Below are positions 1-10,103 of a stretch of DNA of 10,103 nucleotides, piece by piece. This stretch comes from a virus, in UHGV virus genome UHGV-0293072; one strand, given 5' to 3'. Position 1 is the first letter of the stretch, and the number at the start of each line of letters is the position of its first letter. The notes under the pieces are model-generated. The model made no database searches. It worked only from the letters and a program-made list of their open reading frames with translations, and had not been told where the DNA came from. Position numbers and translations under genes: made by a program.

Positions 1-146
1 ACGGCCAGCACGGTGGGGTATTGTATGCGCGGCGCAATATGGTGGCCGGTGGCTATATCAGCGGCGGCCTGACGCCTGACCAGGTCGAACAATCGGTCTT
101 TGATTATCTGCTGTTTGGTGACGTTGCTATCCTGAAAATTCCTTTG

Positions 147-1958
147 TCATGCTGCTTTCCCAAAGTACCAGCCCGATGGGCGGTCATATTCGTGATCGAT
201 AGGTTCGTTAATTACGGCGTGCGAAATGGCGAAGAAAACATCTGCATGGCCGGTCGCGTCTGAGCGTTCGGCAACAAATGTCAGCGCGTTGCCGCTGTTG
301 GTTGTCGTGCGCCGGATAGCCATAAAGCTGGCCGGAATTTCGACGCGCTCTTTGTTCGTTTCGTCTACGGCGTCTTTTGCCCATTCGATGCGCTTACGCT
401 CGACAACGTCGATCATCTTCATCACCAGGCGGTTTTTGCTTTCGACGCTGTAAAGAATGGGTGTGGCTTCGCGTGGCGCAAATTTGCTGACAAGGTCATA
501 AACGCCCTTACCTATGCCGGTTGTATCGATCCCGATGTAAGTGATGTTAAAGCGGCGCATAAGCTGCTTTATCTGGTCGGCCTGCCAGCTGAAGTTAAAG
601 CCCTGCCATTGCCAGACGGCCAGCACACGGAAGCGCTCGCCGTCCTCTATGGGGGGCGCGATTAACACAAAGGTGGAATTGTCGCCGGATCGTGACGGGT
701 CAAAGCCTGCCCATACTTCGCGATTGCCGAAGGGCCGCGCAGCGGTCAGATCAAAGTCGCCCCATGTGGCCCGGTCCACTTCACAGCCAACAAGCGCGGA
801 GAACTTGAAAACCGCGTCTTTACTGTCAACAAACTGGCACATGTAGAGCATGGCGAACGCGGTCGGGCTGTATTTGTTGCGCAGCCGTTCAATATCGACA
901 AGCGCCCCGAGGCCGCCTTCGATAGCGTCTTCCATCGTGATGATGTAGCGCCAGATCTGGTCCGGGCAAAGAATGCCCTGGCGCATTTCGCTTTCGTTCG
1001 GGAACTTCACACCTTTGCGTTTAGGGTCGTCCCCGCGCCAGGCTTCGCCAGTCCAGACCGGGTAAGCCTGGTGCGTTTTCGCGCTGGGCGTCGAAAAGTA
1101 GGTCGTGCGGTATTTGTTATGCGTTGCCATTGCGCTGGCAACTTCATGCAGGCGCGTGAATTTCGGGATCCAGAAAACCTCATCGCCATACAGGTGGCCG
1201 TTAAAGCCCTGTGCGGTACTGGCGTTCGTGGACAAAAAGCGCAGTATTGCGCCGTTACTGAGGCGGATATTTTTACCCGTCAGCGTCACGCCGAAATGGT
1301 TCTGGGCGATCTGGACGATGTATTCACGGAAGATTTCCGACTGGGAGCGGCTTGCAGAGAAAAAGACCTGGTTGTCACCGGTAATGACGGCGTCTTCAAA
1401 TGCTTCCCAGGCGAAATAATAGGTCATACCCACCTGGCGGCTTTTCAGAATGAAGCGCCAGTCTTCGCCTTTATGTTCGCGGCAGTGCAGCTGGTACTCG
1501 AAGAGATGTTCCCGCGCCCAGGTGTCGAGCATTTCCGCTGTAATACCGGAAACGTCGTTTTTCTTATACCGGCGCTTTCTTTCCCCAGGTTCCCCGCCTG
1601 CGCTGCTGAGGCAGTACCCTTCACCATCATAAGCCGCTTTCTGGGCCTGAATTTCTGCCAGCTTTTCGGCGTGCTTGTTGTGCTGCGCCATGAGCTTCAC
1701 ATGATGGGCAATCAGATCGCGTAGTTCCTCCAGTTCCAGCGCGGTTTTTTTCTCGCGGCGGGAGAGCTGGTCGATACGGCGGGCGATGACATTTTCCACC
1801 GATTCAACAGGCAGCAGTGATGCCCACTTCCCGACGTCAGCCCAGTGGTAAATTGTACGCGGTGGAATATTCAGTTCCTGCGCAATATCTTTCGGCGACC
1901 AGCTTTTTATATAAAGCGTGCGGGCCGCTTCTTTTAATTCATCGGAATATTTAGCCAT
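147..1958 (-). CDS. Phage terminase large (ATPase) subunit, P2 GpP-like
   Basis: 603-aa ORF, ATG at 1958-1956 and TGA at 149-147. Size, N-terminus (MAKYSDELKEAARTLYIKSW) and position divergent from a scaffold-capsid operon match the P2-family terminase ATPase arrangement. Family assignment is from recall, not a search. Confidence 0.85.
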   Translation of the reverse strand: MAKYSDELKEAARTLYIKSWSPKDIAQELNIPPRTIYHWADVGKWASLLPVESVENVIARRIDQLSRREKKTALELEELRDLIAHHVKLMAQHNKHAEKLAEIQAQKAAYDGEGYCLSSAGGEPGERKRRYKKNDVSGITAEMLDTWAREHLFEYQLHCREHKGEDWRFILKSRQVGMTYYFAWEAFEDAVITGDNQVFFSASRSQSEIFREYIVQIAQNHFGVTLTGKNIRLSNGAILRFLSTNASTAQGFNGHLYGDEVFWIPKFTRLHEVASAMATHNKYRTTYFSTPSAKTHQAYPVWTGEAWRGDDPKRKGVKFPNESEMRQGILCPDQIWRYIITMEDAIEGGLGALVDIERLRNKYSPTAFAMLYMCQFVDSKDAVFKFSALVGCEVDRATWGDFDLTAARPFGNREVWAGFDPSRSGDNSTFVLIAPPIEDGERFRVLAVWQWQGFNFSWQADQIKQLMRRFNITYIGIDTTGIGKGVYDLVSKFAPREATPILYSVESKNRLVMKMIDVVERKRIEWAKDAVDETNKERVEIPASFMAIRRTTTNSGNALTFVAERSDATGHADVFFAISHAVINEPIDHEYDRPSGWYFGKAA

Positions 1959-2135
1959 GCGGCTATTATGGCGGGATTATTTTGCAGAATTGATAATTAA
2001 ATATCGGTAAAAAGTGGCTATCCCATTATAACCGAATACATAAGAAATAAAGCGGTCGCGCTGTATTAATCAATTCGCAATACTGACCACCACAAACGAA
2101 TCATTGCTATTTTAATTCTTCAATAAAGGTCAGTT
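1959..2135. promoter_or_regulatory. Divergent AT-rich intergenic region, probable late promoters for the leftward terminase operon and the rightward scaffold-capsid operon
   Basis: 177-bp AT-rich gap between divergent starts at 1958 (-) and 2136 (+). Contains an imperfect dyad TGTATT-N11-AATACT at 2062-2084, i.e. TGT-N12-GCA rather than the canonical P2 Ogr-type TGT-N12-ACA. No confident -10/-35 identified. Confidence 0.4.
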
Positions 2136-3197
2136 ATGCCGCAATCTCATTACCGCACGGATTGGCTATGTATTGCCACATCTGGACAGGCTGTGGACGG
2201 TCGCACCATTGAACCGCAATGGTTGATTGATGCGGCAGAAACCTACACCCGCAAAACCTACACCGCCATGATTTGGCCGCACCACCCGCAATACGATATC
2301 GGCGAGCGTGAATTTACCTGCAACCTGGGTGAAGTGGACGCGCTGAAAGTGGAAACGGAAGGTGACGTCACGAAGTTATATGCCCAGTTAATCCCGAATC
2401 AATTTTTAATTGATGCCAACCGTATGGGGCAAAAGTTATTTACGTCAGCAGAATTTGTCACTGATTTTGCAGGCAGTGGTCGTGAATATCTTTTCGGGCT
2501 GGCTGTGACGGATATTCCGGCAAGTCTGGGAACGGAAAAACTTAAATTTGTTTTAGCCGGTGAAGAAAAAGACGCCGAGCGCGGGAGTCTGGAAACATTC
2601 AGCTTAGGGAAATTACAGACAAGTAAACCAGATAAAAAAGATTCTTTCTGGTCGCGTTTATTTTCGGCCAGTAAAGATTTTACGCCAACGCCAGAGCCAA
2701 ACACTGATAAGCCCACCGAGGGCGACGGAGAAAAAATGGAAGAATTAAAAGCGCTCATTCAGCAAATGCTGGATCTGCTTAAAAGCGGGAAAGACGCCGC
2801 AGCGGGTGACGCTGACACGGTTGATACCCCGGAACAGGCCGCAGATGTGGTGGCAGATGTTGCCGCCCAGATCGCTGATGCTGCCGACGAGGTGGCCGAG
2901 CTGGCGCAGGACGTTATCGAAAACCCGGAAGACGAAGTCAAAGCGGAAGAATTCAGCGCCGCCAAAGCCAACCTGGCAAAAGTCATGAAGTCATTCAATG
3001 TGACGCCAGCGAAGCGCCCACGCGCCAGCCGTCGCCGTGACTTTTCCGCCCGTCGCCAGCCCGCTGACAACCCAATGGACAACCTCGCCACGCAACTGAC
3101 TACCGCCCTGACCAAGTTGTCAGCGCTGGAAAACGGCAATACGCGCCGCCCTGGCAGCGCACCAGGTGGAAACAAAGAACCGTTTGAGTTTGTTTAA
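2136..3197 (+). CDS. Capsid scaffolding protein, P2 GpO-like
   Basis: 353-aa ORF with Shine-Dalgarno AAAGG 6 nt upstream of ATG 2136. It sits immediately upstream of the major capsid gene and has a long acidic Ala/Asp/Glu-rich C-terminal half typical of scaffolds. P2 gene order P | O N M L. Confidence 0.8.
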   Translation: MPQSHYRTDWLCIATSGQAVDGRTIEPQWLIDAAETYTRKTYTAMIWPHHPQYDIGEREFTCNLGEVDALKVETEGDVTKLYAQLIPNQFLIDANRMGQKLFTSAEFVTDFAGSGREYLFGLAVTDIPASLGTEKLKFVLAGEEKDAERGSLETFSLGKLQTSKPDKKDSFWSRLFSASKDFTPTPEPNTDKPTEGDGEKMEELKALIQQMLDLLKSGKDAAAGDADTVDTPEQAADVVADVAAQIADAADEVAELAQDVIENPEDEVKAEEFSAAKANLAKVMKSFNVTPAKRPRASRRRDFSARRQPADNPMDNLATQLTTALTKLSALENGNTRRPGSAPGGNKEPFEFV

Positions 3198-3225
3198 CAG
3201 CCATTCTTTTCAGGAATAAAAGATT

Positions 3226-4248
3226 ATGCAATTAACCCCAAAAGCAGAGCAGATGCTGCGTAAGTTTGCCGCAGGCCTGGCGAAAGCTAACGGCCAGGTG
3301 GACACGTCGCGCTACTTCTCGCTGACCAATCCGAAAGAAACCCAGCTGCGCAATGCCCTGTTGCAACAGTCTGAGTTCCTGCGCCTGCTGCCTAACGTAC
3401 TGGATGTGGACCAGATCACCGGCCAGGTGGTCAGCACCGGTAAACCGGGTATTTATACCGGGCGCAAAAAGGACGGTCGTTTCTCCCGCCCCCTGGGTGT
3501 TACCGGGAATGAATACAAGCTGGTAGAAACGGATTCCGGTTCGTATCTGCCTTACTCCCTGCTGGTTGTCTGGGCGAACGCGGGCAGTGAAGAGGAGTTC
3601 TTCCAGCGTATTCAGGCATTCAGCAACGAATCATTCGCGCTGGATATGCTGCGCGTGGCATTTAACGGTACAAGTGTTGCAGACGATACCGACCCGGAAA
3701 CCAACCCGAACGGCGAAGACGTCAACATCGGCTGGCACCAAATCGTTAAGGCCCGTTCGTCCGAACAGATTATTTCTGATGCCGTCACTATTGGCGCGTC
3801 GGGGGCTGACTTTATTGGTCTGGATGCGGCAGTCACTGACCTGGTGCACACCTGTATTTATGAGCCATTCCGCAATGACCCGCGCCTGGTTGTGCTGGCT
3901 TCCGCCGACCTTATCGGCAACGACGCCACCACGATGATGAATAAGATTGATCGCCCGACTGAGAAAGTCGCCGCGCAGCTTATTGGTCGCCAGATTGCTG
4001 GCCGTACCGTGTACACCCCGCCGTTTATGCCGGAGGGCCGCCTTATCGTCACCACGCTGGACAATCTGCATATCTACACCCAGCAGGGTACACGTAAGCG
4101 TAAAGCGGAATGGAACGACGACCGCAAGCGCTTCGAGAATAACTATCTGCGCATGGAAGGTTACGGCGTCGAGCATGACGAGCTGTATGCAGCATTCGAC
4201 AAAATCACCCTTGCGACCGGCGAAGTTGCACCGGGAGGGAGCGCATAA
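3226..4248 (+). CDS. Major capsid protein, P2 GpN family
   Basis: 340-aa ORF. Recalled P2 GpN-like blocks: VAFNGTS, NPNGEDVNIGWHQ, YEPFRNDPRLVVLASADLIG, and the C-terminal EHDELYAAFDKITLATGEV. Stop TAA at 4246-4248 lies 2 nt before the next ATG. Confidence 0.85.
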   Translation: MQLTPKAEQMLRKFAAGLAKANGQVDTSRYFSLTNPKETQLRNALLQQSEFLRLLPNVLDVDQITGQVVSTGKPGIYTGRKKDGRFSRPLGVTGNEYKLVETDSGSYLPYSLLVVWANAGSEEEFFQRIQAFSNESFALDMLRVAFNGTSVADDTDPETNPNGEDVNIGWHQIVKARSSEQIISDAVTIGASGADFIGLDAAVTDLVHTCIYEPFRNDPRLVVLASADLIGNDATTMMNKIDRPTEKVAAQLIGRQIAGRTVYTPPFMPEGRLIVTTLDNLHIYTQQGTRKRKAEWNDDRKRFENNYLRMEGYGVEHDELYAAFDKITLATGEVAPGGSA

Positions 4249-4250
4249 AA

Positions 4251-4952
4251 ATGGCCATGACCCCGTGTCAGCGACACCGAGCACGCGCGAAAGCCGCAAA
4301 GGCGCTGGATAAGTGCGAAGCACTGACGGCATCGCCGGTCAGCTTTCACATTCAAATGCTGGAGCTGGAAAAGGATGTTGAACGGCTTCGCAGTCTGACG
4401 CGTGCAGACCGTATGGACATGAAGCGCGACGTTCTTCTGCCGCGCTGGATGCCGACCGTTGAGGCATATCTTGCCGGTGATGCCCGCTTTGCCAATCCGG
4501 CCCTGGTTTACTGCGTGATCTGGCTGTTCGATACGGGGGAAATGGGCAAGGCGCTGGACTGGGCTGACGTGGCTATCAGTGAGAGCCAGGCCACGCCGGA
4601 GAACTTCAAAAGCAACCTGCCCGCCTTTGTGGCCGACACGGTGCTGGAGTGGGCGATCATGCAGGCGGAAGCCGGTCACAGCATCGAACCCTATTTCAGC
4701 CGCACGTTTGAAAACATCCGCGAAAAGTGGCGTTTGCACGAAGACATTAACGCGAAGTGGTTCAAATTCGCCGGTCTTTACCTGCTGCGCGACGAGAAGG
4801 GCCAGCCGCGTGCCACTGCCGTGGATGATGTGAATACGCTGGAACAGGCCGACGCCCTGCTGGCCCAGGCGGCGGCGTACAACAAAAACGCCGGAGTTAA
4901 GACCATGCGCGAAAAAATCCGCGCCCGGATTAACGGCCTGACCCAGCTTTAA
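4251..4952 (+). CDS. Terminase small (endonuclease) subunit, P2 GpM-like
   Basis: 233-aa ORF directly after the capsid gene, with a GGGAGGGA Shine-Dalgarno upstream. Position and size fit P2 GpM. Confidence 0.75.
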   Translation: MAMTPCQRHRARAKAAKALDKCEALTASPVSFHIQMLELEKDVERLRSLTRADRMDMKRDVLLPRWMPTVEAYLAGDARFANPALVYCVIWLFDTGEMGKALDWADVAISESQATPENFKSNLPAFVADTVLEWAIMQAEAGHSIEPYFSRTFENIREKWRLHEDINAKWFKFAGLYLLRDEKGQPRATAVDDVNTLEQADALLAQAAAYNKNAGVKTMREKIRARINGLTQL

Positions 4953-5054
4953 CGACTCCCGCAAGCCGGGACGGGCGCGGGGGAGGCATCAACCATACGG
5001 TTGTTGGCCGTGGAACCCGTCAGCCCGTTTCTATTGCAAAACCGAGGTACGCCA

Positions 5055-5528
5055 ATGAGTGGCCCTAGTTTCAGTATCAGCGGCAAGCCGGTGACGGTGA
5101 CGCCAACAGCGATCACCAACGGCGTGGCGTTCTGGCCCGATCTTGATCTGGCCGAGTTTCAGAAGGTGCGCACGTTGCCCGCTGACCTGCCGCCAGAAAC
5201 GGCAGGCGTGGCCCTGCTGGCCGCCATTGCGGAGGTAAACGACGCGCTGGCCGACGTGGTGACGTACTGGAACGCGAAAGCCTACGAACGGGCCGCAGAT
5301 GTACCGGGTGCAAAGATGGGCGACGAAACCCAATTAAAAGCCCAGTAAAAAAAAGCGGTCTACGCCCGCGCAAAGGCCGATTTACTGGGGGAATTCGCCA
5401 CCATCGGGCGACGTGAATCGCATCCGGGGCAGGAAAGCCAGGACACCCGCGCCAGCCTGCTGGCCGAGGCGGCCAATGTGATGCGAAACATGCTGCGACA
5501 ACCACGCGTTGGGGTGCATCTGATATGA
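5055..5528 (+). pseudogene. Head completion/stabilisation protein (P2 GpL-like) interrupted by an in-frame TAA at 5346-5348
   Basis: ATG 5055 with GAGG 7 nt upstream. The frame is open 5055-5345, hits TAA at 5346-5348, then the same frame stays open for 59 more sense codons (KKAVYARAKADLLGEFATIGRRESHPGQ...RVGVHLI) to TGA 5526-5528, which overlaps the ATG of the next gene. Combined length would be 157 aa, in the size range of GpL. Confidence 0.65.
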
Positions 5529-6001
5529 GCCAGCTTGAAAGCCTGACGGCGTTTATTACGGAAAATCTGCCGCCTGATGCCATGCAGATGTTTTCCAGTT
5601 CAATGGAGGATTGCGAGCTGGTACGCAACGCCAAAGCGCTGGGAAACAACCAGCGCCGGATCGGGGTGCTGACTTATACCGCCCGTTTGTCGTGGGATGA
5701 TTTCCCCTACCGCAAATATTCGCCGGGGCTGATTTATGCCCTGGTGCTGGCCTGGGTAGATGAGTTCGCCAACGAGCTGCGCGACGAGCTGAAGTTAGCC
5801 GATCCCACCGTGGACCCGGAGTTCGACGACGAAGGGTCATGCATTCTGGATGTGGTTGTCCCGCTGGTTGATCCGCTGGTCCTGCGTGAAGTGGAAAAAG
5901 GGCCGATCCCCTTCAAGGGTAAGAAATGGGACATCGTAAACCCCGAAATCTGGGAGGCGTCGCAACTGGAATTTATTGTCCAGCGTGGTGAGGCATCGTG
6001 A
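5525..6001 (+). CDS. Hypothetical phage structural protein in the neck/tail-completion position (possibly Mu gp36/DUF1320-like)
   Basis: 158-aa ORF. Its ATG 5525 overlaps the upstream TGA (ATGA) and its TGA 5999-6001 overlaps the downstream GTG start, indicating translational coupling. The family suggestion is a weak recollection only. Confidence 0.6.
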   Translation: MSQLESLTAFITENLPPDAMQMFSSSMEDCELVRNAKALGNNQRRIGVLTYTARLSWDDFPYRKYSPGLIYALVLAWVDEFANELRDELKLADPTVDPEFDDEGSCILDVVVPLVDPLVLREVEKGPIPFKGKKWDIVNPEIWEASQLEFIVQRGEAS

Positions 6002-6693
6002 TCCGTGGGGAGCTGAACCAACAACAGCTAAAGCAAATGCGGGAAACGCTGGCAAAAGCTGACCTTCCCCCGCGTAAGCGCCAGCGCCTTTTATGGCGTA
6101 TTGCAAAGCTGGGCATTGTCACAGCGGCAAAACGTCACCAGCGCCAGCAGGCGGCCCCGGACGGTACGCCGTGGGAGCCGCGCAAGCGTGGCAAAGGGAA
6201 AATGTTAAAAGGGCTGCCCAAACTGCTGGCTGTGCGTGAAATGCCGGAGATTCAGGGGGTAAGAATTTACCTCAAGGGCGGGAACTACCTGAACGGGACG
6301 AAGCCCATTGCGGCGGGTCTGGTCGGTGCGGTCCAGCAGGACGGTGCGCGGATCCAGATGAAAGCCAGTAACGCCCCGCGTAAGCCGCAGATTAACCAGC
6401 CCGCGTTACCGCGACAGGCCAAACGGCTGCGGGCGCTGGGCTACAAAACCCGCAAGGGTAAACGATGGGTTAAGCCGTCCAGCAGGCAAATCATGGAAAC
6501 CATGAGCATGGCCCAGGCGGGATTACTGATTCGAAAACTGAAAGGCACACCCTCAAAACGCACATGGACCATTGATATTCCTGGACGCGTTTTTCTGGGG
6601 GTGAGCAATGACGAATTTAACCAAATTATTGCGCGGCAAATGCAGGCAATCGGCTTCGGCTGGGACGTCACCGCGCAGCAAATCAGGGGGTAA
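5998..6693 (+). CDS. Phage virion morphogenesis / tail completion protein (P2 GpS, Mu gpK family)
   Basis: 231-aa basic protein with GTG start preceded by GGTGAGG. Motifs GTPWEPRKRGKG, RKGKRWVKP and IDIPGRVFLGV resemble the recalled W..P..R..G / GKRW / IPARPFL signature of the virion morphogenesis family. Confidence 0.65.
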   Translation: MIRGELNQQQLKQMRETLAKADLPPRKRQRLLWRIAKLGIVTAAKRHQRQQAAPDGTPWEPRKRGKGKMLKGLPKLLAVREMPEIQGVRIYLKGGNYLNGTKPIAAGLVGAVQQDGARIQMKASNAPRKPQINQPALPRQAKRLRALGYKTRKGKRWVKPSSRQIMETMSMAQAGLLIRKLKGTPSKRTWTIDIPGRVFLGVSNDEFNQIIARQMQAIGFGWDVTAQQIRG

Positions 6694-7146
6694 AAATGAC
6701 CTGGCCTACAGTCAACGTCAGTCAGAAAAACCGCTTCAACGGCACAACGAACGACGTCGAGCGCGTCATCCTCTTTGTGGGTTACGGCGACACTAACATC
6801 GGGAAAACCCAGTCGCTGAATACCGGCAGCGATCTGGATAAAGCCCTGGGCGACAAAGACAGCCCGTTAAAAAATATGGTGGCCGCTGCGGCCAATAACG
6901 CCGGACAGAACTGGTTTGCTTACGTGCATGTGCTGGCAGAGCCAGACAAGGGAGCCGAGGGCTACAAACCAGACGAAGACTGGATGAACGCAGTCAAACA
7001 GGCCCAGAGCGTGGCATCCGTGGAAGGGGTTGTCCTGGCATTTGATACCGCCGCCGCGGCCACCATTAACCGCGCAACGGAAATGCGCGTCACCTTACAG
7101 GCCAGTTTTGGGCGTTTTATCTGGTTTGCCCTTGCTGTGGGTGGGC

Positions 7147-7190
7147 CCGAAAAAGACGAAGTCATAATCGTGATACCACATCGGCACGCT
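7147..7190. repeat. Left junction repeats: A (7147-7161, ccgaaaaagacgaag) followed by B (7162-7190, tcataatcgtgataccacatcggcacgct)
   Basis: Exact reverse complements are present at 7454-7468 (A') and 7469-7497 (B'); verified base by base. Confidence 0.9.
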
Positions 7191-7468
7191 GTAGCGGCTT
7201 GCCTGCAAAGACTGCAACACAGCCAGATCAATTTCTGCGCCCGTCCCGTCCACCGGCAGGCCGTCGCGCCCCAGCGCGGTGACTGCACCGGTTGCGACGC
7301 GGGCGGGGCTGTCTGCCACCGTCACCGAACGGTTACACAGGCGACCAACCAGGACGCCGGGTTCGTTACCCCACAGGCGCGGGACCAGTTGCACCCCAGG
7401 CGAGGCAATACCGGCCTGGAGTTCAGCCAGGCGCGTCACATAGTCGCTCCATGCTTCGTCTTTTTCGG
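7162..7468 (-). other. Inverted internal block of the sheath-like gene (coding sense on minus strand)
   Basis: The minus strand reads SEKDE-AWSDYVTRLAELQAGIASPGVQLVPRLWGNEPGVLVGRLCNRSVTVADSPARVATGAVTALGRDGLPVDGTGAEIDLAVLQSLQASRY-SVPMWYHDYD, sharing EKDE with the plus-strand N-terminal fragment and SVPMWYHDYD with the plus-strand C-terminal fragment. Confidence 0.75.
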
Positions 7469-7497
7469 AGCGTGCCGATGTGGTATCACGATTATGA
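7454..7497. repeat. Right junction repeats: A' (7454-7468, cttcgtctttttcgg) followed by B' (7469-7497, agcgtgccgatgtggtatcacgattatga)
   Basis: Reverse complements of A and B at the left junction. The order on the right is A'-B', not B'-A' as a simple 44-bp inverted repeat would give. Confidence 0.9.
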
Positions 7498-7885
7498 CGG
7501 CATCTACTGGGCTGACGGTCGCACCCTGGACGTTGAAGGCGGTGATTATCAGGTGATTGAAAACGTGCGCGTGGTTGATAAAGCCTCCCGCCGCGTCCGT
7601 CTGCGTGCAATCCCTAAAATTGCCGATCGTTCGCTGAACAGTACACCGGGCAGCATTGCCGCGCATGAAACCTATTTCGGCAAGCCGCTGCGTGAAATGG
7701 CGATTTCAACCCAGATCAATGGTGTCGAATTTCCGGGCGAAGTGAAGCCACCAAAAGACGGCGATATCACCATCACCTGGACCAGTAGCGAAGCGGTACA
7801 GATTTACCTTGTGGTTCGACCGTATGAGAGCGCGAAAGAAATCGGCGTCAGCATCGAACTGGACACCTCACTGGAGAGCTAACCA

Positions 7886-8341
7886 ATGACTGAACGTATC
7901 AGCGGTGGATCATTCGATGTGAACTACGACGCCATCATGATTCACGTCGAAAACGCCACCGTCACCATTACGGACAACAGCGCGGTTGCGCAGTCGCGTG
8001 GCATCCCGAACGGCCACACGAAAGGGTCAGTTTCGGCGGATGTGGAAGTCGAAGTCGATTCCCAGAATTTTAAAAAGTTTACGGCTGTGGCCCGCGCCGC
8101 AGGCTCATGGCGGGCCATTCCGGCAAAGGACTTTTTGTTCTATGCCAATGCCGGGGACGACGAAGAAAAAATCGAAGTGTTTGGCTGTGTTCCGATGTTG
8201 TCCGACATCGTCAACATCAACCCTAACGAGGCCAGTAAAACCACGAAAAAAATTAAATTCATGGTGACAAGCCCGGATTTTGTCGCGATTGACGGCGTGC
8301 CGTACCTGTCTGCCCGTGACACTCGCGATCTGAAAGGCTGA
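7886..8341 (+). CDS. Tail tube-like protein
   Basis: 151-aa ORF with GGAGAG Shine-Dalgarno, immediately after the sheath-like gene. Size and position are typical of a contractile-tail tube protein. Assignment is by context. Confidence 0.6.
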   Translation: MTERISGGSFDVNYDAIMIHVENATVTITDNSAVAQSRGIPNGHTKGSVSADVEVEVDSQNFKKFTAVARAAGSWRAIPAKDFLFYANAGDDEEKIEVFGCVPMLSDIVNINPNEASKTTKKIKFMVTSPDFVAIDGVPYLSARDTRDLKG

Positions 8342-8345
8342 CACG

Positions 8346-8657
8346 ATGATGAATGGAGAGGCATCACTGCTGGAAAAACTGTTGCTTATCGGGGCCGTGA
8401 TCGGACTGGGGCAACTGATGGCAAGCAATGAGCAAATCACAGCCCGTTTGCTGATCGGGCGGATGATTCTGGGATCGGCGGTCGCACCACTGGCCGCAAT
8501 CCCGCTGCTGAAATTTCCTGAAATGCCGGAACTGGTCGTCATTGGTCTGGCCTGCGCCCTGGGCATTCTGGGGAGCGCGTTTATTGAGGCAGGGCTAAAG
8601 CGCTGCCTGGATATGTATATCAAGCGATGGGGGAGCAAGCGCAATGAAACTGAGTGA
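8346..8657 (+). CDS. Holin (three predicted transmembrane segments, dual ATG-ATG start)
   Basis: 103 aa with three hydrophobic stretches (LLLIGAVIGLGQLMA, LLIGRMILGSAVAPLAAIPLL, LVVIGLACALGILGSAFI) and a charged C-terminus. It directly precedes and overlaps the endolysin gene. Confidence 0.7.
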   Translation: MMNGEASLLEKLLLIGAVIGLGQLMASNEQITARLLIGRMILGSAVAPLAAIPLLKFPEMPELVVIGLACALGILGSAFIEAGLKRCLDMYIKRWGSKRNETE

Positions 8658-8982
8658 AAAACAGCAACTTTTCACGGTGATGATCGCCAACCTGATTCAT
8701 TTTGCCGAAGACAAGGGCTATCGCCTGACGTTTGGCGAAGCGTACCGCACACCAGAGCAGGCCGCGATCAACGCAAAAAAAGGGAGTGGCATTGCTAACA
8801 GCCTGCATACCCAGCGCCTGGCCGTGGACTTTAACCTGTTTGTTAACGGCGAATACCAGACCGACAGCGCCGCTTATCGCCCGCTGGGTGAATACTGGGA
8901 ATCCATCGGTGGATCATGGGGTGGCCGTTTCAGTAAGCCGGACGGCAACCATTTCAGTCTTGAGCATAACGGGGTGAGCTGA
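8644..8982 (+). CDS. Endolysin, peptidase M15 family (zinc-dependent cell-wall peptidase)
   Basis: 112 aa with an H-x6-D motif (SLHTQRLAVD) and a second His (GNHFSLEH), consistent with M15 zinc ligands. GGGGGAG Shine-Dalgarno upstream; start overlaps the holin 3' end. Confidence 0.75.
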   Translation: MKLSEKQQLFTVMIANLIHFAEDKGYRLTFGEAYRTPEQAAINAKKGSGIANSLHTQRLAVDFNLFVNGEYQTDSAAYRPLGEYWESIGGSWGGRFSKPDGNHFSLEHNGVS

Positions 8983-9365
8983 TGCGAAATGTGCTGGGTC
9001 TTTTGTTGATTCTGGCCGCTGCTATGTGGGCGGGCTGGCAGGCGCATGACTGGCACGACGCAAAGCTGAAACTCGCTGCCAGCGAAGCGGCAGAACAAAC
9101 GCGCCAGATTGTCGTTGAGGTGACGCGGCAGTCTGGTGAAGCGCTGGAAGCAAAACTCGCGGGGCTTAAAGCCAATGAAATTCATACGGAACGGGTTATC
9201 CGCACGGAAACCATTAAGCCGGTTTTTAGCAACGTTTGTGCTTCTGATGATTACGTCCGGCTGTTCAACGAAAGTGCAGATCAAGCCGAGCGAGAATTAT
9301 CAGGAAAACCAGATGACACTTTGCCCGGTAAGACCACCACGTCTGGCCGGACCGACAGGAAATGA
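8982..9365 (+). CDS. i-spanin (Rz-like)
   Basis: 127 aa with an N-terminal transmembrane anchor (LGLLLILAAAMWAGW) followed by a charged, helical periplasmic domain. ATG overlaps the endolysin stop (TGATG). Contains an embedded +1-frame lipoprotein ORF. Confidence 0.7.
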   Translation: MRNVLGLLLILAAAMWAGWQAHDWHDAKLKLAASEAAEQTRQIVVEVTRQSGEALEAKLAGLKANEIHTERVIRTETIKPVFSNVCASDDYVRLFNESADQAERELSGKPDDTLPGKTTTSGRTDRK

Positions 9366-9471
9366 TTTTGACGCGGCGCTGACAGCCTACCGGCAGATGT
9401 ATACCGACTGCGCCGCCCGACATAACGCCCTAGTGGGCATCATTCGACAACGTAAGGAATTAACACAATGA
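9175..9471 (+). CDS. o-spanin (Rz1-like outer-membrane lipoprotein), embedded in and extending beyond the i-spanin gene
   Basis: +1-frame ORF inside Rz. Signal peptide with lipobox-like TSGC (Cys at 9262-9264), Pro-rich mature part with additional Cys. Start is ambiguous: ATG 9175, or GTG 9136 with GAGGTGA upstream. Its stop TGA 9469-9471 overlaps the next ATG. Confidence 0.6.
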   Translation: MKFIRNGLSARKPLSRFLATFVLLMITSGCSTKVQIKPSENYQENQMTLCPVRPPRLAGPTGNDFDAALTAYRQMYTDCAARHNALVGIIRQRKELTQ

Positions 9472-9737
9472 GTAAACCGAACAAAATCACCATGACCGTG
9501 GCGGGTGTCAATCTGAGCTTTGAGCCGAATAAAACCGCGTTCAATAACCTGATTAACGAAATGACCATGACCAATAAGATTGCGCCAATGGCGACGTATC
9601 TGGGGCGTATCGTTGATGCCGACTGTAAAGAGGCACTTAGCAAGCTGATGGAAGATTATCCGGGTTGCGAAATGCAGATCGTTGAAAAGGTTAACGAGAT
9701 TTACTCCCCCAAACTTGAGATCGAAGTAAAAAACTGA
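9468..9737 (+). CDS. Putative tail assembly chaperone (G-like) with a 3'-terminal -1 slippery site
   Basis: 89-aa ORF with AAGGA Shine-Dalgarno. It ends ...GTA AAA AAC TGA with heptamer A_AAA_AAC in the zero frame, and the -1 frame is open from there to the window end. Position ahead of the presumed tape-measure region fits the conserved chaperone frameshift arrangement. Confidence 0.5.
   Translation: MSKPNKITMTVAGVNLSFEPNKTAFNNLINEMTMTNKIAPMATYLGRIVDADCKEALSKLMEDYPGCEMQIVEKVNEIYSPKLEIEVKN
9728..9734 (+). promoter_or_regulatory. Candidate -1 programmed ribosomal frameshift heptamer A_AAA_AAC
   Basis: Canonical X_XXY_YYZ slippery pattern in the correct phase, 1 nt before the zero-frame stop. 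No downstream pseudoknot or stem-loop was evaluated. Confidence 0.45.
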
Positions 9738-10103
9738 CGGCGCGGGTAGCGGCCATTCGCACGAATGCCCTGGAGCAATACCTTGCCTTGAGCGCGTCCT
9801 CTGCTACGCCTTTGGAACCCACTTCTGCAAGTGCGGCGTTCATCTCATACGCCGGACCCACCACGCCCGCGATGGACTGCGCCACGCCCCAGACAGCCGC
9901 CGCACCGATCCCGATTTTTGTAAAAGACGCCTGCGATTTTTCAGCAAAGCCGGACAACGAAGATGCGATGAAAGGTGCAATGGCGGGCCTGTCCGATATG
10001 GACCTGCCCCGCGTCACCATCGCGGCCAATACCCTGGCGGCAGGCGTCAAGGCCAGCGGCGAAGAGGCAGGCGAATACATCGGTGCGATGGCGTCACGTT
10101 TCA
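9728..10103 (+). CDS. -1 frame extension of the chaperone (GT-like fusion) and/or 5' part of the next tail gene; truncated by the window end
   Basis: The -1 frame has no stop from 9719 to 10103 (over 125 codons). High-quality codon usage from about 9968 (MKGAMAGLSDMDLPRVTIAANTLAAGVKASGEEAGEYIGAMASRF). No good Shine-Dalgarno before the in-frame ATGs at 9872 or 9968, favouring access by frameshifting. Confidence 0.4.

Follow-up and report, generated by a model that had tools for sequence, protein, structure and literature searches.

Why does the gpL gene of the virus genome record UHGV-0293072 stop in mid-frame, when the same frame runs on behind the stop as far as the next gene? The stretch of this record that we analysed (10.1 kb, hereafter called the window) holds the late, or morphogenesis, region of a P2-family phage. 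Its gpL gene begins at an ATG at 5055-5057, with GAGG in front, and meets an in-frame ochre codon, TAA, at 5346-5348 (context CAG TAA AAA AAA GCG). As written, translation covers only gpL codons 1-97. Past the TAA the frame holds 59 further sense codons (5349-5525) before a TGA at 5526-5528, which overlaps the ATG at 5525 of the following gpR-like gene as ATGA. A first-pass annotation, made from the sequence, had offered three explanations: a nonsense substitution, stop-codon readthrough or a base-call error. The outer two survive our analysis; readthrough is not supported.

The interrupted gene and its setting

The gene sits where P2-type late clusters normally have it: the terminase small subunit gene precedes it, and the tail or neck genes follow. 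The order gpO, gpN, gpM, gpL, gpR-like is that of phage SI7 and of the relatives found among Logan contigs. The genes of the window and the two parts of gpL are as follows.

147-1958, minus strand: terminase large subunit gene
2136-3197, plus strand: scaffold gene (gpO)
3226-4248, plus strand: major capsid gene (gpN)
4251-4952, plus strand: terminase small subunit gene (gpM)
5055-5528, plus strand: gpL gene, with the stop included mid-frame
5055-5345, plus strand: gpL (head-to-tail adaptor Ad1, or head completion), codons 1-97, identified by Pfam PF05926 and PHROG 71
5349-5528, plus strand: gpL codons 99-157 plus TGA, identified by Pfam, by identity with the nearest relative and by pN/pS
5525-6001, plus strand: gpR-like tail terminator gene (PHROG 65, E = 1.2e-28; Pfam P2_Phage_GpR on an identical product)
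5998-6693, plus strand: gpS-like gene
from 6696, plus strand: tail sheath gene (DUF2586)
after the sheath gene, plus strand: tube, holin, endolysin, spanin and tail assembly chaperone genes

Every coordinate that the first-pass annotation gave for the gpL locus holds, from the ATG at 5055 through the TAA, the run of eight A, the 59 codons and the TGA to the ATG at 5525 and the in-frame GTG at 5478. Its description of the region as having no other gaps does not hold. A 102-nt non-coding gap (4953-5054) separates gpL from the terminase small subunit gene just upstream, and the same gap is found in SI7 and the Logan relatives. It is G+C-rich, and it contains no match to a promoter-like or terminator-like consensus.

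The A run occupies 5347-5354 and is the sole A8 or T8 run in the window. About 1.2 such runs are expected by chance in a window of this size, and the run itself is therefore unremarkable. After the TAA, the earliest in-frame ATG, GTG or TTG is the GTG at 5478, followed by an ATG at 5481. The gpR-like gene, with its ATG overlapping the gpL TGA, would normally be translationally coupled to gpL.

The stop falls within a conserved domain

When the stop is masked, the 157-residue translation matches Pfam Phage_GPL (PF05926) over positions 5-139 of 139, with 112.7 bits against a cut-off of 27. The GpL-like identity proposed at first reading is thus well founded. Each half also exceeds the PF05926 cut-off by itself (56.9 and 45.3 bits). 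The 97 residues before the stop match profile positions 5-75 of 139 (E = 3e-15), and the 59 residues after it match positions 79-139 of 139 (E = 1.1e-11). PHROG 71, the head-tail adaptor Ad1 family, gives the same picture: positions 5-94 of 158 for the half before the stop (E = 1.5e-19) and 98-158 of 158 for the half after it (E = 2.4e-14). The frame after the stop is not a product of chance, because its 59 residues alone match both Phage_GPL and PHROG 71. Indeed, this part is the better-conserved half of gpL, with a pN/pS of 0.05-0.12 in the four most diverged pairs of relatives.

The TAA is codon 98 of 157 and corresponds to about position 77 of 139 in PF05926. Judged by these profile matches, it cuts a single conserved domain midway. 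The window offers no uninterrupted reading frame for the full domain, and the locus is best described as a Phage_GPL family homologue that, as written, would not be a functional gene.

A private C-to-A substitution

The first-pass annotation had left two points to the relatives: whether homologues continue past residue 98, and which codon they carry at that position. They do continue. All aligned relatives have an uninterrupted gpL of 157-169 aa, and nine of them were checked codon by codon. The codon is TAC (Tyr) in 30 of 30 related loci, namely those of SI7, SW5, five Logan contigs, five genomes (Citrobacter, Enterobacter, Kluyvera, Erwinia and Buttiauxella), 16 IMG/VR contigs, an E. coli prophage and Escherichia phage ESSI2_ev129. 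In the protein alignment the Tyr98 column is invariant, out to P2 gpL at 26% identity. The stop is thus a change of TAC to TAA by a single C-to-A substitution at 5348 (Tyr98 to ochre, Y98*).

The closest annotated phages are the Salmonella phages SI7, SW5 and SW3 (Peduoviridae, Irrigatiovirus), which are 97% identical and have a 157-aa gpL. The alignment of gpL with SI7 and SW5 runs over 474 columns with zero gaps, and the C to A is the sole change at the stop. This absence of any indel bears out the earlier argument that a homopolymer length error cannot account for the stop. The A8 run is itself a result of the substitution, which joins the TA of TAC to an ancestral run of six A.

A second private C-to-A change lies nearby, at 5338. 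It converts ACA to AAA (Thr95Lys) and TTAACAG to TTAAAAG. Codon 95 is ACA or ACG in 29 of the related loci; the remaining locus is gapped there. Each of the two altered Cs interrupted or abutted an A run, and both changes lengthen A runs.

The nearest relative of the window is a phage-sized Logan contig of 30.5 kb, SRR11412904_3608 (hereafter L003). Mismatches at the edges of rearrangement junctions and the orientation of a patch in the sheath gene (see below) set aside, positions 142-9768 of the window differ from L003 at only two bases, 5338 and 5348, both C to A. There is no synonymous or intergenic difference beside them. The two changes are 10 nt apart, a spacing with a probability of about 0.002 for two random changes in 9.6 kb. 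Before the stop, gpL differs from its L003 counterpart solely at 5338; after the stop it is 100% identical, and the gpR-like products are identical as well. L003 encodes an intact gpL of 157 aa; in the portal, sheath and tape-measure genes, too, it is unbroken and collinear with all other relatives. Such full identity with an intact relative behind the stop means that the lesion either arose extremely recently or has no biological origin. A second contig, L004 (ERR13331322_133), is similar: the two, at 30.5 and 34.0 kb, share at least 99.9% identity with the window, and none of their late genes is broken.

Neither of the truncated products, of 97 aa and 112 aa, was on record in an exact look-up. 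Mutant 24-28-mers were found in 0 viral contigs and 0 metagenome contigs, whereas the wild-type 24-mer is present in 16 IMG/VR contigs. A related prophage at 96% identity is carried by 18 complete E. coli genomes; the gpL gene is annotated in all of them, and none of these 18 carries a pseudogene flag on gpL. A search of plasmids gave no match. We also considered a templated patch, or gene conversion, from within the window as the source of the changes. We rejected it: the mutant 23-mer has no second copy there even at 3 mismatches.

Recoding, slippage and a split gene

TAA is an ordinary stop codon in this phage. It terminates gpO, gpN, gpM and the gpS-like gene, and none of the other tabulated genes of the window has an internal stop; the codon is therefore not reassigned. 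Reassignment would be marked by disuse of TAA as a terminator and by many in-frame copies, and the window has neither. ARAGORN found no tRNA gene in the 10.1-kb window, and thus no suppressor tRNA there, and no Rfam family matched it. The RNA fold of the 120 nt after the stop is no better than that of shuffled sequence (z = -0.17).

Basal readthrough of UAA is about 1e-4 to 1e-3. Could full-length gpL nevertheless be made, and the phage be viable? Ribosomes might read through the UAA, whether as a programmed or as a tolerated event, or an ochre-suppressing host or a suppressor tRNA might decode it. The intact downstream frame, identical to that of functional relatives, is what such a phage would need. 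The stop is followed by an A, reportedly not the strongest termination context in E. coli (Poole, Brown and Tate, 1995). Against this, 0 of the 30 related loci has a stop at codon 98. UAA ends four other genes of the window, in two of which the next base is also A. The context is UAA with no stimulatory structure among the folds and Rfam families searched. The basal level is too low to supply a structural protein of which each virion needs 12 copies, and other essential genes of the window are broken anyway. The uniform TAC of the relatives, the normal TAA terminators and the lack of a stimulatory structure together leave readthrough unsupported, and we consider it very improbable. Still less credible is a gpL that is naturally two genes, one for a protein of 97 aa and a small separate one behind it. 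Its case consists of the open frame after the stop and nothing further, while no in-frame ATG, GTG or TTG occurs between the stop and the GTG at 5478, every aligned relative encodes one uninterrupted protein, and a single Pfam profile and a single PHROG profile span the site.

Several other candidates were tried and rejected. Frameshifting or transcriptional slippage at the A8 run fails because in the zero frame the stop comes before the run, and no gain or loss of As could abolish it; nor is there a slippery codon pairing at GCC-CAG-UAA. Minus-strand ORFs at 5113-5649 and 5031-5333 have no PHROG family, which leaves nothing to suggest antisense genes. Scans for a new promoter or terminator created by the substitution showed nothing above chance. 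On the minus strand at 5353-5367, a T8 run after a weak 5-bp stem scores as terminator-like. This is one such site against 1.2 expected, and it is probably meaningless.

Inverted patches elsewhere in the window

The gpL stop is not the only private defect of the window. Three inverted patches lie outside the gene, as follows.

7161-7468 (308 nt): private patch in the sheath gene (DUF2586), reversed relative to the relatives, with its ends duplicated in inverted form
1-141: private inverted fragment from inside the portal gene, the reverse complement of L003 4269-4409
9787-9963 (177 nt): private fragment of the tape-measure gene (5' part), inverted, the reverse complement of L003 14425-14601

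In the sheath patch, 15 nt and 30 nt at the ends are present twice, the second time inverted (flanks 7147-7161 and 7469-7498), for a net gain of 44 nt. Where the relatives have a sheath of 380 aa, the window has two broken ORFs, 6696-7556 and 7292-7882. The arrangement reads like three pieces that overlap by 15 and 30 nt, laid end to end with the middle one flipped. The junction k-mer is absent from viral contigs, and the chimeric ORF product was not on record in an exact look-up. At the portal fragment, 205 nt are missing before collinear sequence resumes at 142, and the portal gene (minus strand, start near 150) is broken a few codons past its start. The tape-measure patch lacks 199 nt on one side and 73 nt on the other, and its left junction is marked by a cluster of private substitutions (9769, 9772 and 9788-9805). 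The region lost after the tail assembly chaperone gene is annotated in SI7 as a small hypothetical protein; it may be a frameshift extension.

All relatives that cover a patch have the other orientation (20, 10 and 9 loci for the three patches, the 20 at the sheath patch). For the sheath patch, the 18 E. coli prophages and phage records support the other orientation as well. The patch junctions are blunt, with overlaps of 0-2 nt.

Chimeras formed during MDA offer a possible parallel. Of the MDA chimeras reported by Lasken and Stockwell, over 85% were inversions accompanied by an intervening deletion (PMC1855051). An inverted segment with an intervening deletion resembles two of the three patches, but the overlap of only 0-2 nt at the window's junctions counts against such an origin, and we treat MDA-type chimeras as a lead only.

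A defect of the record or a genuine mutation

We conclude that the TAA is a non-programmed, private single-base substitution in the gpL gene of an Irrigatiovirus (SI7-like) member of the P2 family and that it is most probably a defect of the record (probability about 0.6). It could stem from a wrong base or consensus call at this A-rich place, in a build that is chimeric and has little support, or from corruption of another kind; the real phage would then have TAC at 5346-5348. The record has four private disabling defects in 10 kb (in gpL, portal, sheath and tape measure) and no neutral divergence from L003. The second C-to-A change at 5338 and the three inverted patches shift the balance towards a defect of UHGV-0293072, and natural decay would be expected to show the opposite pattern, with many point changes and few complex rearrangements. 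Two considerations speak against a record error. Compared with L003, the rest of the window has no indels or scattered miscalls, unlike a generally noisy assembly, and real nonsense mutations do arise in prophage genes.

The chief competitor, which we hold to be possible though clearly the less probable, is a genuine nonsense mutation of very recent date, carried by a defective phage copy such as a dead prophage or a non-viable variant in the sampled population. Dislocation mutagenesis, a misalignment of the polymerase in vivo, would replace a C that adjoins an A run with A. In this account one event, an error-prone synthesis patch or an A-run misalignment, would have changed both Cs, and the portal, sheath and tape-measure genes would have been lost earlier or simultaneously through template-switch rearrangements. 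The lesion is, after all, what the sequence contains; further essential genes are broken, as expected of a copy free of selection; both sites, with a C beside an A run turned into A, fit a single misalignment-type event; and the lack of indels or stray differences from L003 speaks for good base quality. However, four disabling lesions would then have accumulated with zero neutral difference in 9.6 kb from an intact relative, and decay normally gains point changes far faster than blunt-ended inverted patches. None of the lesions is shared by any other public sequence searched. Moreover, the window lies wholly in phage sequence, with no host flank that would indicate a prophage. The gene carries a disabling lesion relative to its intact orthologues, as a pseudogene would, but not the relaxed, neutral divergence of one: outside the junction edges there is no further point difference from L003 in 9.6 kb.

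Comparison with known systems

The closest counterpart of the window's gene is gp06 of SI7 (YP_009883339.1, head-tail adaptor Ad1; the gene is identical in SW5 and SW3). It occupies the same place, has the same ATGA overlap and is 97% identical over 474 nt without an indel. Where the window has TAA and AAA, however, SI7 has TAC (Tyr98) and ACA (Thr95) in an uninterrupted frame of 157 aa. P2 gpL (NP_046762.1, capsid completion protein) belongs to the same Pfam family and conserves the Tyr at the mutated column. It differs in its length of 169 aa and in what follows: gene X and the lysis genes in P2, the terminator gene in the window.

The stop resembles classical amber and ochre mutations, and the pseudogenes of decaying prophages, in that one base turns a sense codon into a stop and the downstream frame stays intact. 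Unlike classical nonsense alleles, the window's TAA is private to one record, with no sign of propagation in a suppressor host or of inheritance. Programmed readthrough likewise features an in-frame stop followed by an open, protein-like frame; the Qbeta A1 protein, made at a UGA, is an example. Such systems are conserved among relatives, use leaky stops and add an optional domain. By contrast, the stop described here is absent from all relatives, is UAA and splits one conserved domain.

Consequences for gpL and for the record

A cryo-EM preprint on the P2 virion describes gpL as a 12-mer ring that has the portal (gpQ) on one side and the tail terminator (gpR) on the other, with a C-terminal region that makes a β-strand handshake with the portal clip, and lists gpL among six orthologues common to all Peduoviridae (bioRxiv 10.64898/2026.09.14.750843). 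Our own search of PDB sequences for gpL homologues, with single sequences and with profiles, gave no meaningful match. If the TAA were real, the product would end after Gln97, short of the final 60 of its 157 residues, where gpL is best conserved. Judged from the homologous P2 protein, the missing part would include the C-terminal region that pairs with the portal clip. Presumably no adaptor ring could form, and heads would be neither completed nor joined to tails. Translation would also end 177 nt before the ATGA overlap, and coupling to the terminator gene would probably be lost.

A nonsense lesion or a miscall in gpL is an ordinary, already known kind of thing, and one changed base in a well-known structural gene adds nothing to what is understood of gpL or of recoding. 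Its practical meaning lies with the record. The window should not be annotated as two gpL fragments or as a readthrough protein, and UHGV-0293072 should be treated with caution because it has four private defects in 10 kb. L003 and L004 are the best available reference for repairing or checking it. One further reading, which we think highly improbable, is that the TAA exists in a phage that continues to propagate, with enough full-length adaptor supplied by readthrough at CAG-UAA-AAA-AAA or by growth in an ochre-suppressing host. If that were true, the phage would carry a naturally occurring conditional-lethal allele in one of the essential core genes of the Peduoviridae.
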